Of a stretch of DNA of 5,563 nt, positions 1-4,434 are shown piece by piece. The stretch's first letter is position 1. Each line of letters starts with the position of its first letter. Source of the stretch: a virus (Duplodnaviria > Heunggongvirae > Uroviricota > Caudoviricetes). The stretch is from IMG/VR virus record IMGVR_UViG_2617270980_000005, one strand, 5' to 3'. Both the position numbers and the translations under genes were made by a program. The notes below the pieces were generated by a model that searched no databases, was not told the DNA's origin, and was given only the letters and a program-made list of their open reading frames with translations.

Positions 1-229
1 CCAGCTCTTTCAGACGCTGACGTTCAGCGCTGGTGAGCCCACCATCACCGCCCCCGGTATCCCGCTCATGCTGGCGAACCCAGACACGCAGAGTCTCCGG
101 CGTACAGCCAATCTTTGGGGCAATGGAACAAATTGCCGCCCACTGTGAGTCATATTCATCCTGACTTTCCAGAACCATACGAATCGCCCGCTGACGGACT
201 TCGGGGGAAAAACGAGTATTTTTAGTCAT
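1..229 (-). CDS. IS3-family transposase OrfA, N-terminal 76 codons (partial, runs off window start)
   Basis: ATG at 229-227 on the minus strand, preceded by GAGG (AAAGAGGTAAACAGG ATG); open frame to position 1; HTH-type N-terminus characteristic of IS3-family OrfA. Confidence 0.8.
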
Positions 230-283
230 CCTGTTTACCTCTTTCTCAGGGAGTTTAGTCTCCAGGATTTCCGGGGCGGTTCA
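1..283 (-). mobile_element. IS3-family insertion sequence (IS629/IS1203-like), partial; one terminus at 283, element continues beyond the window start
   Basis: Reverse complement of 231-283 reads TGAACCGCCCCGGAAATCCTGGAGACTAAACTCCCTGAGAAAGAGGTAAACAG, a TGA-initiated terminal inverted repeat typical of IS3-family ends, followed immediately by the orfA start. The encoded protein begins [76 protein letters not shown], which I recognise from memory as IS629/IS1203-type OrfA. Exact IS name not verified. Confidence 0.8.
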
Positions 284-459
284 GAGTTGTATACATCGCC
301 ACTGGCAACCAGCTCTCTGGCAAGAGCGCTCATCAGATATCTTGTCGCACCTGTCTTGGCTTCCAGTTGCCGTAACGTCTCACGACCGCTCTGGCGCACG
401 AGTTCCACCACCTGCCCTTTAATTTTTTCCCGCTCTTCTTGTGTAAAAACTTTTGCCAC
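284..459 (-). pseudogene. 5' portion (58 codons) of a phage gene downstream of the replication initiator, interrupted by the IS; the 74-aa ORF in the track is a fusion whose last ~15 residues are encoded by the IS terminus
   Basis: GTG start at 459-457 preceded by GGGGGA Shine-Dalgarno (AAGGGGGACTT GTG), 40 bp after the initiator stop. Native frame reads MAKVFTQEEREKIKGQVVELVRQSGRETLRQLEAKTGATRYLMSALARELVASGDVYN, then crosses the IS boundary at 283/284 and stops inside the IS inverted repeat. Identity of the native protein not recognised. Confidence 0.5.
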
Positions 460-499: not shown

Positions 500-1465
500 T
501 TATCCCCTGAAACCAGGCGGAATTTCGGTATCCGGTTCAGAAATATGATTCACACAACGCTTTATTGGCGAACGCCCCAGGCGAATAACCAGCTCATCCC
601 ATTTTTCGCGAAGCTTTGACGGACTCATGATGTTTTTGACCCAGAATGGATCTCGCTGTACCCGACCAAACATTTCGCAAATTTGTCTGTGGCTTCTGCC
701 ATCCAGCATCCGCATTGTGCGCACGTCATTGGCCCAGGCAGTCCAGTTAGGCTCTTTTGGTCGCATGATCTCGCCATCATCACTGGCGGCCTGTTCGTAG
801 AGACCCACGATCCGCCCCCAGATCCACTGCGCACACGCCAAATCCTCCCTGCTACCCCACTGCCGTTTTTTCGCACTAAACACAACTGCGTCAGGGTGCC
901 GGATTAAAAAATCCTGTTCAGCCGTCTGCTGGTCCGGTTGCAAAGCTTCCGGACGAAAAGTGTTTTTATTCTCTGTAGTAATCTCTGTTGTATTCTCTGT
1001 AGGATCATCGGGCCATTTTGACCCGATGACATTGGGTCGTTTTGAACCAATGGAGCGTTTCATTTTGACCTCTTCCATCATGTCATTTTGACCTGATGGA
1101 GCGACGCATTTTGAACTGATGGATTCGCTCAATTTGCCACCATCTAAAAGATCGCTCCCATAGTTGATCGTGTAGAAATTGGTCATGTCGCGCTTTGATT
1201 TATTGAGCTTTTCGCAACGCAAAAGCCCCAGCGTTTTCAGACTTGCAAACGCGCGCTTTAACGTTGACTCTGACCAGAACGGGAACTGCGCCAGCCATTG
1301 TTCCGTTGTGTTGTAAATCCAGCGAACACCATCACATTCCATGCCGGAATTGGTATCTCTCAACCAGTAATGCAGTTGCTGCAACACAATGGCTTCGTTT
1401 AAGCCAATCTTCATCGCAAGCTGTGTGTTTATAACCAGTGGGCGTTCAGCAAAAAGAAGGCTCAT
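500..1465 (-). CDS. phage replication initiator / replisome organiser (lambda O-like role), 321 aa from ATG 1465; the track ORF extends to an upstream TTG at 1519
   Basis: Long minus-strand ORF in the position lambda O occupies (after cro-like and cII-position genes). It contains in-frame DNA iterons in the interdomain linker (…SIGSKRPNVIGSKWPDDPTENTTEITTENKNT…), a hallmark of O-type initiators whose origin lies inside the gene. Domain family not assigned from memory. Confidence 0.8.
   Translation of the reverse strand: MSLLFAERPLVINTQLAMKIGLNEAIVLQQLHYWLRDTNSGMECDGVRWIYNTTEQWLAQFPFWSESTLKRAFASLKTLGLLRCEKLNKSKRDMTNFYTINYGSDLLDGGKLSESISSKCVAPSGQNDMMEEVKMKRSIGSKRPNVIGSKWPDDPTENTTEITTENKNTFRPEALQPDQQTAEQDFLIRHPDAVVFSAKKRQWGSREDLACAQWIWGRIVGLYEQAASDDGEIMRPKEPNWTAWANDVRTMRMLDGRSHRQICEMFGRVQRDPFWVKNIMSPSKLREKWDELVIRLGRSPIKRCVNHISEPDTEIPPGFRG
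961..1125. repeat. candidate phage replication origin: five ~23-bp iterons (1009-1123) plus an adjacent AT-rich region with a 3x ~12-bp direct repeat (961-1008)
   Basis: Direct repeats with cores CATTTTGACC (1014), CGTTTTGAACC (1038), CATTTTGACC (1061), CATTTTGACC (1084), CATTTTGAAC (1107), spaced 23-24 bp. Several have inverted-repeat arms (ATCGGG..CCCGAT, CATTGG..CCAATG, CCATCA..TGATGG). Flanking 961-1008 is AT-rich with TCTCTGT(A/T)G three times. Confidence 0.65.
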
Positions 1466-1967
1466 AATTCCATCCAGCTTTTTGTTGGTATTGCTGTCGA
1501 TACGCAAGCTTGAAAGCAATTGCTTTTTCTATAAGTTCGTCAGTTTCACGATCTACAACGGCAGGATCTGCAAAAAGCAGTCCGGACTCCACCACATCGC
1601 CATATTCTTTATTTAACCCAGCGATCATGTACGTAATGCTCTTTCCGTCACTAATTTCACGATACAACCTGAAATCACTAATCCGGATAGCCTCCATAAT
1701 TGCAGGCACTAGCGCTGTGAACTTTTCACGCTTATCCCTGGTGTCGATAGCCTTCCAGCGTTCAAATATCTTCACTCGATTAACGCTAAGCGCTCGCTGA
1801 TCAACCGCGCCACCTTCATATGTGACACGCTGAACATCGATGTTCGGGCGCTCTTTCAAAGCCCAGAATGCTTCAGTGATTAATATCGTCGCCTGCTCCT
1901 GTGTCATTCCTGGTCGACATATCCAGGCATCCAGAGCCTCACGAGCCTGTTCAGGAGTGATTTTCAT
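1446..1967 (-). CDS. hypothetical prophage early protein, 173 aa, in the cII position between the cro-like gene and the replication initiator
   Basis: ATG at 1967-1965; overlaps the dicC 3' end by 17 bp and the initiator start by 20 bp (compact operon). Protein MKITPEQAREALDAWICRPGMTQEQATILITEAFWALKERPNIDVQRV… looks globular and charged-balanced. Likely the intact counterpart of the decayed ydfX/ydfW region of K-12 Qin (from memory, unverified). Confidence 0.7.
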   Translation of the reverse strand: MKITPEQAREALDAWICRPGMTQEQATILITEAFWALKERPNIDVQRVTYEGGAVDQRALSVNRVKIFERWKAIDTRDKREKFTALVPAIMEAIRISDFRLYREISDGKSITYMIAGLNKEYGDVVESGLLFADPAVVDRETDELIEKAIAFKLAYRQQYQQKAGWNYEPSFC

Positions 1968-2181
1968 TGTTCAACCGCCCCGCCCGCTTCGTCTTACGAT
2001 ATTCGTCATAAACTTTGGGATCATACTGAAGCTCCCCGCCAGATGCCTCCTGTAGACGCATCGCGCGACCTTCGGGAACTAAATCCCCTTTCCAGCTATA
2101 AAGCGAAGCCAAACGAATACCTGCTGCTTGTGCAAGTTTTGTTTTTGAACCGAAATACAAAAGAGCGTCAGTTTTAAGCAT
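1951..2181 (-). CDS. dicC: DicC, Cro-like HTH regulator of the Qin-type immunity switch (76 aa)
   Basis: ATG at 2181-2179 with AAGG 7-8 nt upstream on the minus strand; protein MLKTDALLYFGSKTKLAQAAGIRLASLYSWKGDLVPEGRAMRLQEASGG… matches remembered DicC; divergent from dicA. Confidence 0.9.
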   Translation of the reverse strand: MLKTDALLYFGSKTKLAQAAGIRLASLYSWKGDLVPEGRAMRLQEASGGELQYDPKVYDEYRKTKRAGRLNNENHS

Positions 2182-2264
2182 TTAAAACACCTTAGATGTT
2201 AGTCATGGCTAACAAAATAGATGTTAACAAAAACATAGTCAATACGATTTAGCATTAGCTAACT
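2182..2264. promoter_or_regulatory. divergent dicC/dicA promoter-operator region with three dyad-symmetric candidate operator sites
   Basis: Dyads TGTTAGtcatggCTAACA (2197-2214), ATGTTaacaaaAACAT (2221-2236), TTAGCattaGCTAA (2249-2262). Candidate PdicC on the minus strand: -35 TTGACT (complement of 2237-2242), 17-bp spacer, -10 TATTTT (complement of 2214-2219). The second dyad sits in the spacer and the first overlaps the -10/+1 region. Confidence 0.6.
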
Positions 2265-2672
2265 ATGGATACAAAAAATTTAACCATCGGCGAACGCATT
2301 AGGTATCGTCGGAAAAACCTCAAACACACCCAAAGGTCTCTTGCTAAAGCCCTGAAAATCTCCCATGTGTCTGTATCACAATGGGAACGGGATGATAGTG
2401 AACCTACAGGGAAGAACCTTTTTGCCCTCAGCAAAGTATTGCAATGCTCACCAACATGGATTCTATTTGGCGATGAAGACAAGCAACCAACACCACCTGT
2501 TGAGAAGCCGGTTGCCTTAGCCCCCAAAGAACTAGAGCTCCTTGAGCTGTTTAATGCACTGCCAGAATCAGAACAGGATACCCAGCTCGCCGAAATGCGA
2601 GCTCGAGTAAAAAATTTCAATAAACTCTTTGAAGAATTACTAAAAGCCCGTCAGCGGACAAATAAAAGATAA
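2265..2672 (+). CDS. dicA: DicA, XRE/CI-family HTH repressor of the dicB operon (135 aa)
   Basis: Protein MDTKNLTIGERIRYRRKNLKHTQRSLAKALKISHVSVSQWERDDSEPTGKNLFALSKVLQCSPTWILFGDEDKQ…KARQRTNKR matches remembered DicA essentially full length; N-terminal HTH; divergent from dicC. Confidence 0.95.
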   Translation: MDTKNLTIGERIRYRRKNLKHTQRSLAKALKISHVSVSQWERDDSEPTGKNLFALSKVLQCSPTWILFGDEDKQPTPPVEKPVALAPKELELLELFNALPESEQDTQLAEMRARVKNFNKLFEELLKARQRTNKR

Positions 2673-2700
2673 CATCATCAATGAGTTATCTTTTATTATA
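2664..2700 (+). terminator. weak candidate intrinsic terminator overlapping the dicA stop
   Basis: Inverted repeat AAAAGATAAC (2664-2673) / GTTATCTTTT (2685-2694) with an 11-nt loop, followed by ATTATAT. The stem is AT-rich, so termination efficiency is doubtful. Confidence 0.3.
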
Positions 2701-2706
2701 TCAATT

Positions 2707-2762
2707 ATGTTAGCCATAACATACAAAATCACTTGACCAATATGTTAGTTATGACTAATCTT
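2707..2762 (+). promoter_or_regulatory. candidate dicB-operon promoter (PdicB) with two operator-like dyads
   Basis: -35 TTGACC (2734-2739), 16-bp spacer, -10 TAATCT (2756-2761). Dyads ATGTTAgccaTAACAT (2707-2722) and TTAGTtatgACTAA (2745-2758) share half-sites with the dicA/dicC intergenic dyads; the second lies between -35 and -10. Confidence 0.55.
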
Positions 2763-3830: not shown

Positions 3831-3883
3831 TTTCTGGTGACGTTTGGCGGTATCAGTTTTACTCCGTGACTGCTCTGCCGCCG
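3831..3883 (+). ncRNA. dicF: DicF small regulatory RNA (about 53 nt)
   Basis: TTTCTGGTGACGTTTGGCGGTATCAGTTTTACTCCGTGACTGCTCTGCCGCCG matches the remembered DicF sequence nearly base for base; located between the ydfB/ydfC region and dicB as in the Qin dicB operon; followed by a T5 run. Confidence 0.9.
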
Positions 3884-4057: not shown

Positions 4058-4246
4058 ATGAAAACGTTATTACCAAACGTTAATACGTCTGAAGGTTGTT
4101 TTGAAATTGGTGTCACTATCAGTAACCCTGTATTTACTGAAGATGCCATTAACAAGAGAAAACAAGAACGGGAGCTATTAAATAAAATATGCATTGTTTC
4201 AATGCTGGCTCGTTTACGTCTGATGCCAAAAGGATGTGCACAATGA
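4058..4246 (+). CDS. dicB: DicB, cell-division inhibitor (62 aa)
   Basis: ATG 4058 with GAGGA 9 nt upstream; protein MKTLLPNVNTSEGCFEIGVTISNPVFTEDAINKRKQERELLNKICIVSMLARLRLMPKGCAQ matches remembered DicB. The longer 97-aa track ORF (3953) is an in-frame 5' extension without RBS. Confidence 0.95.
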   Translation: MKTLLPNVNTSEGCFEIGVTISNPVFTEDAINKRKQERELLNKICIVSMLARLRLMPKGCAQ

Positions 4247-4434
4247 ATTCAGCATTTGCGCTTGTTCTGACAGTTTTTCTTGTTTCCGGAGAGCCAGTTG
4301 ATATTGCAGTCAGTGTTCACAGGACAATGCAGGAGTGTATGACTGCAGCAACCGAACAGAAAATTCCCGGTAACTGTTACCCGGTCGATAAAGTTATTCA
4401 CCAGGATAATATCGAAATCCCGGCAGGTCTTTAA
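4243..4434 (+). CDS. ydfD: YdfD, small prophage lysis protein with N-terminal hydrophobic segment (63 aa)
   Basis: ATG 4243 overlaps the dicB stop (ATGA); AAGGA 9 nt upstream; protein MNSAFALVLTVFLVSGEPVDIAVSVHRTMQECMTAATEQKIPGNCYPVDKVIHQDNIEIPAGL. Confidence 0.9.
   Translation: MNSAFALVLTVFLVSGEPVDIAVSVHRTMQECMTAATEQKIPGNCYPVDKVIHQDNIEIPAGL

Follow-up and report, generated by a model that had tools for sequence, protein, structure and literature searches.

The closest described relatives of the gene considered here are the ydaT genes of the prophages CP-933P (O157:H7) and Rac (K-12), and for both proteins it has been found experimentally that binding to a DNA box activates a promoter directed back toward the repressor gene (PMC9986795, PMC11879457, PMC8630535). 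The CP-933P box bound by YdaT, TTGATT-N6-AATCAA, lies at the ydaS/ydaT junction (PMC9986795), and the Rac box reads ATGATT-CATGAA-AATCAA and holds the ydaT start codon inside its spacer (PMC11879457). The crystallographers describe a long loop of 9–23 residues between helices alpha2 and alpha3 as the feature that defines YdaT proteins, and a C-terminal helix of the canonical protein that forms a four-helix bundle and with it a tetramer, oligomerisation being required for DNA binding; a CP-933P protein cut down to residues 1–96 stays monomeric and shows no DNA binding (PMC9986795). Only one recognition-helix residue, Arg60 in CP-933P and R57 in Rac, is fully conserved across the family (PMC9986795, PMC11879457). 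Lambda CII is the other point of reference: it has 97 aa, assembles as a dimer of dimers and recognizes the direct repeat TTGC-N6-TTGC, whereas YdaT-type proteins recognize inverted repeats (PMC9986795). The Qin prophage of K-12 carries ydfX, whose product appears in one study as the 'Qin prophage YdaT homolog' (PMC11879457) and elsewhere in the literature as a protein of unknown function.

Here we compare with these systems a 173-aa gene located in a 5,563-nt stretch of prophage DNA (the window, Table 1). Judged by its sequence, it is real and conserved and belongs to an established family of CII-like DNA-binding regulators of phages, the YdaT family; it is therefore nothing out of the ordinary for a lambdoid prophage switch and not a new kind of protein. 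The family as such is already named in RefSeq and in PHROGs; the subfamily described below differs in its predicted operator and in its C-terminal module. Our preferred reading, to which we give a probability of about 0.68, is that this gene supplies a Qin/mEp460-type lambdoid prophage with its CII-like transcription factor, a protein of YdaT type that would bind a box at its own start codon and activate transcription toward dicA.

Table 1. Features of the window discussed in the text, with positions in the window and the evidence used.
Feature	Position	Strand	Evidence
YdaT-family (CII-like) regulator CDS, stop included, 173 aa	1446..1967	-	ORF list, Pfam, PHROG, PGAP, dN/dS
O-like replication initiator, 321 aa, next operon gene	500..1465	-	PHROG 391 (E 4.5e-91), PGAP boundaries
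dicC, Cro-like repressor, 76 aa, first gene of the rightward-type operon	1951..2181	-	NCBIfam DicC (159.5 bits), Pfam P22_Cro, PGAP
dicA, CI-like repressor, divergent from dicC	2265..2672	+	Pfam HTH_3 and Phage_CI_repr, PGAP
Shine-Dalgarno-like G-rich stretch GGGCGGGGCGG, 7 nt 5' of the ATG, within the dicC 3' end	1975..1985	-	read from sequence
Candidate operator (variant YdaT-box) TTGAAC-AATGAA-AATCAC straddling the start codon, ATG in the spacer	1957..1974	-	motif match, cross-locus conservation
Second near-palindrome CGAACATCGATGTTCA, 1 mismatch to TGAWC-N6-GWTCA, inside the CDS, 127 bp from the box	1831..1846		
Predicted split helix-turn-helix region: alpha2 23–35, 21-residue loop 36–56, recognition helix alpha3 57–71	1755..1901	-	
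Two long C-terminal helices, residues 111–130 and 135–164, predicted oligomerisation hairpin	1476..1637	-	

Coding status, gene order and family

The open reading frame, which runs on the minus strand from an ATG at 1967 to a TGA stop at 1446–1448, is real and not a chance ORF. An E. coli E24377A locus is 100% identical, and its PGAP coding sequences (6001–6522 for the 173-aa gene, 6506–6736 for dicC and 5055–6020 for the O-like gene) match the boundaries of all three genes of the window; the identical protein, WP_000705359.1, bears the RefSeq/PGAP name 'toxin YdaT family protein'. The dN/dS ratio is low against four alleles (0.07 for mEp460, 0.03 for E. ruysiae, 0.10 for E. albertii and 0.23 for PPompW) and, for the same four, low in each half of the gene. 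Together with the wide occurrence of the gene in E. coli genomes (see below), these observations establish the coding status. We take Met1 as the start because I3, A11 and L12, which precede Met21, are invariant or nearly so in homologues of about 40% identity; the same residues rule out Met21, which was considered as an alternative start. The SD-like GGCGG ahead of the ATG (1975–1979) has clearer counterparts at the same offset in relatives, where it reads GAGG, AAGGAG or GGAGG.

An earlier note on this DNA had placed the gene in the cII position, with overlaps of 17 bp with dicC (1951–1967) and 20 bp with the initiator (1446–1465); the ORF and both overlaps are exact and agree with the PGAP boundaries, and the position is that of X in the repressor / cro / X / O order of a lambdoid immunity region. 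For the initiator, whose PHROG 391 match carries the label 'replication initiation O-like' and which contains iterons, the start was taken as the ATG at 1465; the mechanical ORF list gives a longer frame that reaches a TTG at 1519. All relatives share the upstream overlap, which takes the form ATGA in 10 of 11 distinct loci; it measures 17 nt in the window, where dicC differs near its 3' end from the Salmonella P22_Cro-type gene by a 1-nt indel and so reads through the ATGA. The 20-nt overlap at the other end of the gene is peculiar to the E. coli lineage; where a downstream replication gene was called in relatives, about 23–49 nt separate it from the YdaT-like gene. Translational coupling with the overlapping neighbours, which the earlier note had deduced from the overlaps, is plausible.

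The gene context is likewise supported by comparison. Every relative examined has a divergent HTH repressor followed by a Cro-like gene (of P22_Cro or YdaS type), a YdaT-like gene and replication genes (O-like, DnaT-like or DnaC/IstB-like), so that within the lambdoid immunity region the slot is flanked by the cro analogue and the replication initiator. This order is common to the window, to annotated genomes that are 100% identical to it, to phage mEp460 and to 11 divergent loci, and it is kept across E. coli, Salmonella, Raoultella, Citrobacter and Enterobacter. The window itself is a defective Qin-like element, in which an IS3 splits a DUF977 gene.

Several profile searches agree on the family. 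The Pfam model YdaT_toxin (PF06254) matches residues 59–131 only, at 27.6 bits, which is above its gathering cut-off of 21, and it matches all 38 aligned members of the subfamily at E ≤ 0.01. PHROG 163, 'CII-like transcriptional activator', covers residues 1–155 (E 8.8e-41) and also matches Rac YdaT (E 2.2e-37) and a Salmonella homologue. A single-sequence phmmer search of the PDB gave only marginal matches (E about 0.05) mixed with armadillo-repeat noise, so a subfamily profile was needed for this search; with it, the only significant structures were those of YdaT (8bt1, E 1.7e-5; 3c4r, E 6.2e-5). Alignment of the same profile to Rac YdaT with hhalign gave a probability of 97.4%. No NCBIfam model was found for the protein.

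The relationship to lambda CII is different. The earlier note had named the YdaT and CII families as the ones to search in Pfam, and the two parted ways: YdaT_toxin scored above its cut-off, and the Pfam scan returned no match at E ≤ 1 to lambda CII or to any other Pfam family. Neither the single-sequence nor the profile search of PDB sequences returned a CII entry. The likeness to CII lies in the genomic slot and in the proposed job, that of an HTH activator made from the PR operon and acting on a promoter toward the repressor gene; lacking a detectable sequence relationship, the 173-aa protein is at most a functional analogue of lambda CII and not a homologue.

The names of the family invite another explanation, in which the 173-aa protein is the toxin and DicC the antitoxin of a YdaS/YdaT-type pair. 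Pfam calls the family 'Bacterial toxin ydaT' and RefSeq uses the same word, the two genes overlap as in many toxin-antitoxin operons, and overexpression of Rac YdaT leads to filamentation and death (PMC11879457). However, the toxin label originated in a prediction tool, the CP-933P experiments found a YdaT without toxicity and without toxin-antitoxin behaviour (PMC8630535), and the toxicity of Rac YdaT is accounted for by transcriptional activation of rcsA (PMC11879457). The predicted fold, moreover, is a DNA-binding HTH domain, and the gene is one of three in an operon that includes a replication initiator and lies in a phage immunity region, also in phage records such as mEp460. We regard a toxin-antitoxin pair as extremely improbable.

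Predicted fold and the C-terminal module

For an AlphaFold2 model computed from the 38-sequence alignment, the mean pLDDT is 84, and it exceeds 90 at residues 21–100. In the model, the N-terminal part is a POU-like all-alpha HTH domain with a long alpha2–alpha3 loop, whose 21 residues fall in the range described for YdaT proteins, and this supports membership in the YdaT fold as well as in the family. Two statements of the earlier note need revision at this point. It had seen no obvious HTH at the N-terminus, and the model shows the POU-like HTH of YdaT; such a motif is hard to spot by eye because the family-typical long loop splits alpha2 from the recognition helix. Its 'toxin-like' description of YdaT is outdated, since the Rac and CP-933P work treats YdaT as a transcription factor (PMC8630535, PMC9986795, PMC11879457). 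The family, left unassigned in the note, is YdaT (PF06254, PHROG 163).

Four residues, N63, F68, R70 and W71, are invariant, and all lie in recognition helix alpha3. The R70/W71 pair, an Arg followed by a Trp that is invariant in the 38 sequences, aligns with R57/W58 of Rac YdaT and with Arg60 of the CP-933P protein. Rac YdaT needs H56 together with R57 for binding (PMC11879457), and the position of H56 is Glu69 in the 173-aa protein and Gln in most of the subfamily, which counts against the preferred reading.

Compared with CP-933P YdaT (PDB 8bt1; close relative 3c4r), the protein is longer (173 versus 141 aa), its similarity is limited to residues ~1–95 with a profile E of only 1.7e-5, and a second long C-terminal helix is predicted to form a hairpin where the canonical protein has the single helix alpha6. 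E141, E144 and Y156 of the C-terminal helical region are invariant in the subfamily. With the extra helix, the protein may not adopt the geometry of the canonical tetramer, and the hairpin is its putative oligomerisation element.

The Rac protein (P76064) resembles the 173-aa protein in PHROG 163 and Pfam membership, in the Arg-Trp pair, in a box, a candidate one here, whose spacer holds the start codon in the same register and in the layout of repressor, cro-like gene, ydaT and replication genes (PMC11879457). It differs in that BLASTP aligns only one 29-residue stretch at 41% identity, and in that a gap of 22 nt separates Rac ydaT from ydaS, whereas the gene here overlaps dicC. A much closer relative is YdfX, the ortholog, which is 98% identical over residues 1–93 and has the identical 17-nt overlap with dicC. 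YdfX ends at 96 aa and is therefore the DNA-binding domain without the C-terminal helices, of which the window has the intact form; since residues 1–96 of the CP-933P protein are monomeric and do not bind DNA, YdfX is by analogy probably inactive, a dead remnant.

A candidate operator at the start codon

At the dicC/ydaT junction of the window, the sequence matches TTGATT-N6-AATCAA at 9 of 12 positions, in the same register as the Rac box. The pattern derived from the subfamily, TGAWC-N6-GWTCA with 0–1 mismatch, is found at the start codon in 14 of 14 subfamily loci scanned, and in the ~970 nt scanned per locus this match is unique save for a +121 site in three E. coli-lineage loci. Among 11 distinct loci, the half-sites are pairwise 96% and 94% identical, while the spacer is 66%, the upstream flank 37–40% and the downstream coding sequence 45% identical.

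The conservation of the motif is supported from several sides. In L019, L021 and L023 the ATG is shifted by 3 nt, yet the 6-nt spacing is preserved, and the left half-site is preserved in two reading frames of two upstream families, DicC/P22_Cro and YdaS. Nine of the 11 loci also keep the G before ATC, which is a wobble base in codons for Lys, Thr, Met and Val; A stands in its place in the window and in L022. The mEp460 phage record has a box identical to that of the window, together with a protein that is 98% identical. On the other side, the window box is the least symmetrical of the set, its halves GTGATT and TTGAAC agreeing at 3 of 6 positions.

The bare pattern is no rarer than chance in the window: the canonical YdaT-box pattern has 3 matches against 4.9 expected, and the subfamily pattern has 8 against 9.0. 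The case therefore rests on position and on cross-locus conservation, and it is the conservation of the half-sites at the start codon across loci that leads us to read the site as a candidate variant YdaT-box. Seen in this way, the conserved inverted repeat TGAAC-N6-GATCA at the start codon may be a new result, and its conservation could in part reflect a translation-initiation or coupling signal. No box-like site was found in the dicA–dicC intergenic region at ≤2 mismatches. The second near-palindrome, inside the coding sequence, is confined to E. coli-lineage loci and is a possible secondary site; two sites at ≤1 mismatch, where 0.81 would be expected, are equalled or exceeded in 42 of 200 shuffles and carry no significance by themselves. 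A long-range inverted repeat between 1952–1966 and 2353–2367 was rejected as a chance match driven by TGAAAATC.

When promoters were sought by consensus, the rightward dicC promoter (TTGACT-17-TATTTT, 2242–2214) was the sole hit, and none of PRE type pointed leftward. Under relaxed criteria the candidates did not rise above chance level, with 7 of 12 positions matched; the best was TCAACC-18-TACGAT at 1971–2000. A match this poor is compatible with a promoter that depends on an activator but does not show that there is one.

These scans bear on an explanation in which the protein is a YdaT-family DNA binder whose attachment at the start codon serves mainly as negative autoregulation or as a transcriptional roadblock, throttling ydaT and the O-like gene rather than activating transcription toward dicA. 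In favour of this, the conserved box shares sequence with the ATG and the ribosome-binding region, the search for leftward promoters gave no good candidate, and the CP-933P authors term YdaT a 'repressor' (PMC9986795). On the other hand, binding to the Rac box left ydaT expression nearly unchanged and raised the reverse promoter up to 29-fold (PMC11879457), the CP-933P protein switched on PRE933P (PMC8630535), and activator-dependent promoters are expected to score poorly in consensus scans. We consider a predominantly repressive role unlikely.

The preserved spacing also bears on the view that the gene is a functionless, decaying remnant of a cryptic prophage, whose junction is conserved only as an inherited translational-coupling signal. 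This view could draw on the defective state of the window and the IS3 in its DUF977 gene, on the truncation of the K-12 copy YdfX to 96 aa, on a frameshift in one Shigella copy and on the many database entries that are fragments or chimeras. Yet dN/dS is 0.03–0.23 in both halves, the gene is full length in 2119 complete genomes and in the phage records mEp460, HannyBb and PhiR42_1, and the motif keeps its spacing despite the 3-nt shift of the ATG, which a pure initiation signal would not need. Decay is very improbable on these grounds.

Proposed circuit, distribution and significance

A YdaT-type activator, the reading that we prefer, would operate as follows. The gene would be co-transcribed with dicC and the O-like gene from the rightward promoter when DicA repression is lifted or after infection, and the protein, with its N-terminal POU-like HTH split by the long loop, would oligomerise via the C-terminal helices. 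The oligomer would bind TGAAC-N6-(G/A)ATCA over its own start codon, at the dicC/ydaT junction, and would activate an otherwise silent leftward PRE-like promoter whose transcript would run antisense through dicC into dicA. More repressor would then be made, and the switch would be pushed to lysogeny or maintenance. By analogy with the experimentally studied proteins, we infer both the binding to the motif and the activation toward dicA, and the target of the PRE-like transcript is presumably dicA, as it is racR and paaR2 in the other systems (PMC11879457, PMC8630535).

A search of 5426 complete E. coli genomes found DNA matching the ORF in 2706, with at least 80% coverage in 2119. The gene also occurs in the PPompW / Stx2a phage group, and phage records annotate it variously as 'unknown protein' (mEp460), 'CII-like transcriptional activator' (HannyBb) and 'cII' (PhiR42_1). 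An exhaustive HMMER scan of 1.84 billion protein representatives returned 64 proteins, mostly fragments, and by this measure of sequence space the subfamily is narrow; a profile search found full-length relatives of 35–48% identity in Salmonella, Citrobacter, Raoultella and Enterobacter. A scan of genome contigs gave 9 loci, three of which are labelled as Bacillota, Veillonella and Collinsella MAGs and are probably mis-binned contigs, because they are 98% identical to E. coli.

The differences from the canonical proteins suggest, tentatively, that a YdaT specificity class of its own, with a re-tuned operator and a different oligomerisation module, is made up of the Qin/mEp460-type proteins and their relatives in Salmonella, Citrobacter and Enterobacter, a proposal to which we would give somewhat less than even odds. 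As part of the same proposal, at the same odds, the predicted operator TGAAC-N6-GATCA would take the place of TTGATT-N6-AATCAA (half-sites TGAAC/GATCA here versus TTGATT/AATCAA in CP-933P). The modelled helical hairpin could build a Rop-like bundle from a dimer, in contrast to the canonical four-helix tetramer. The partner repressors differ as well, being DicA and DicC here and PaaR2 and YdaS in CP-933P, and the right half-site includes a Dam GATC site in most members.

An ORF of a very common E. coli prophage module, present in about half of the complete genomes, is now placed in a family; its K-12 counterpart is the y-gene ydfX, of which the window has the intact form. For the YdaT family, the database name 'toxin' is misleading. 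The comparative analysis yields a concrete operator prediction for the subfamily. The general picture of lambdoid immunity regions is unchanged; the cell-division inhibitors dicB and dicF are under the control of the DicA/DicC switch, and the finding bears on how that switch is set. If the specificity class is real, co-resident Rac, CP-933P and Qin-type prophages would carry mutually insulated CII-like circuits, and Dam methylation of the right half-site could also gate binding.

Cell-division-inhibitor module and IS3 disruption of the prophage

DicF is followed in the window by dicB and ydfD, and the whole dicA/dicC-controlled cell-division-inhibitor module is therefore covered. The inverted repeats on either side of dicA look like DicA/DicC operators for the two divergent promoters and the dicB-operon promoter, and the hairpin after dicA is probably its terminator. 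At the other end, the short ORF matches only the first 58 of the 134 positions in the DUF977 model, and to the left of it the sequence resembles the beginning of an IS3-family transposase gene. In E. coli E24377A, whose locus is identical to the window, the annotation has this DUF977 gene interrupted by an IS3 element, so the prophage is defective.

Features located in the window, and in one relative (L015)
Feature	Position	Strand	Remarks
Apparent start of IS3-family transposase orfA	1-234	-	left of 74-aa ORF
74-aa ORF	235-459	-	DUF977 match
Iteron-like repeats and adjoining tandem repeat	1006-1136 (and 967-1002)		O-like gene
Near-perfect palindrome CGAACATCGATGTTCA	1831-1846		inside YdaT-like CDS
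TGTTAG/CTAACA-type inverted repeats	2186-2225		between dicC and dicA
Perfect 13-nt hairpin	2661-2697		after dicA
TGTTAG/CTAACA-type inverted repeats	2706-2758		downstream of dicA, before ydfA
DicF small RNA	3832-3883	+	Rfam RF00039, 72.5 bits
dicB	about 4058-4246		after DicF
ydfD	about 4243-4434		after dicB
YdaT-like gene copy, Shigella flexneri SFBU0723	L015 3001-3519

Repeats inside the O-like gene

The O-like initiator gene carries five iteron-like repeats spaced by ~23 nt, each unit a small palindrome centred on CATTTTGA(C/A)C (for example, CATCGGGCCATTTTGACCCGATG). Immediately upstream, a tandem repeat of three 12-nt copies (TATTCTCTGTAG) codes for a TENTTEITTEN repeat within the linker of the initiator. 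By analogy with lambda, whose ori lies within O, the iteron-like repeats presumably form the prophage replication origin, likewise internal to the initiator gene.

YdaT-like gene and its start-codon box among relatives

The palindrome within the YdaT-like CDS is found only in the E. coli lineage. It has the TGAAC half-site in common with the start-codon box, the candidate operator at the start of the gene, and the two are separated by 127 bp, roughly 12 helical turns. Two box-like matches were found against 0.8 expected, and the palindrome may be coincidental, or a looping oligomer may use it as a secondary site.

Three hits (L011, L012 and L013) are on contigs assigned to MAGs of Bacillota, Veillonella parvula and Collinsella; their YdaT-like gene is 98% identical to that of E. 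coli, and the contigs are almost certainly Enterobacteriaceae prophage sequences mis-binned in gut metagenome bins. The Shigella allele is pseudogenised, with both ends still nearly identical and a frameshift affecting residues about 54 to 117, a segment that contains several stop codons.

The right half-site of the start-codon box is AATCA in the window, without GATC. Most non-E. coli members (L004, L007, L009, L017-L021 and L023, start-codon region) have GATCA, which includes the Dam methylation site GATC, and in L020 both half-sites contain it; these sequences make methylation-sensitive operator binding a possibility in those phages.
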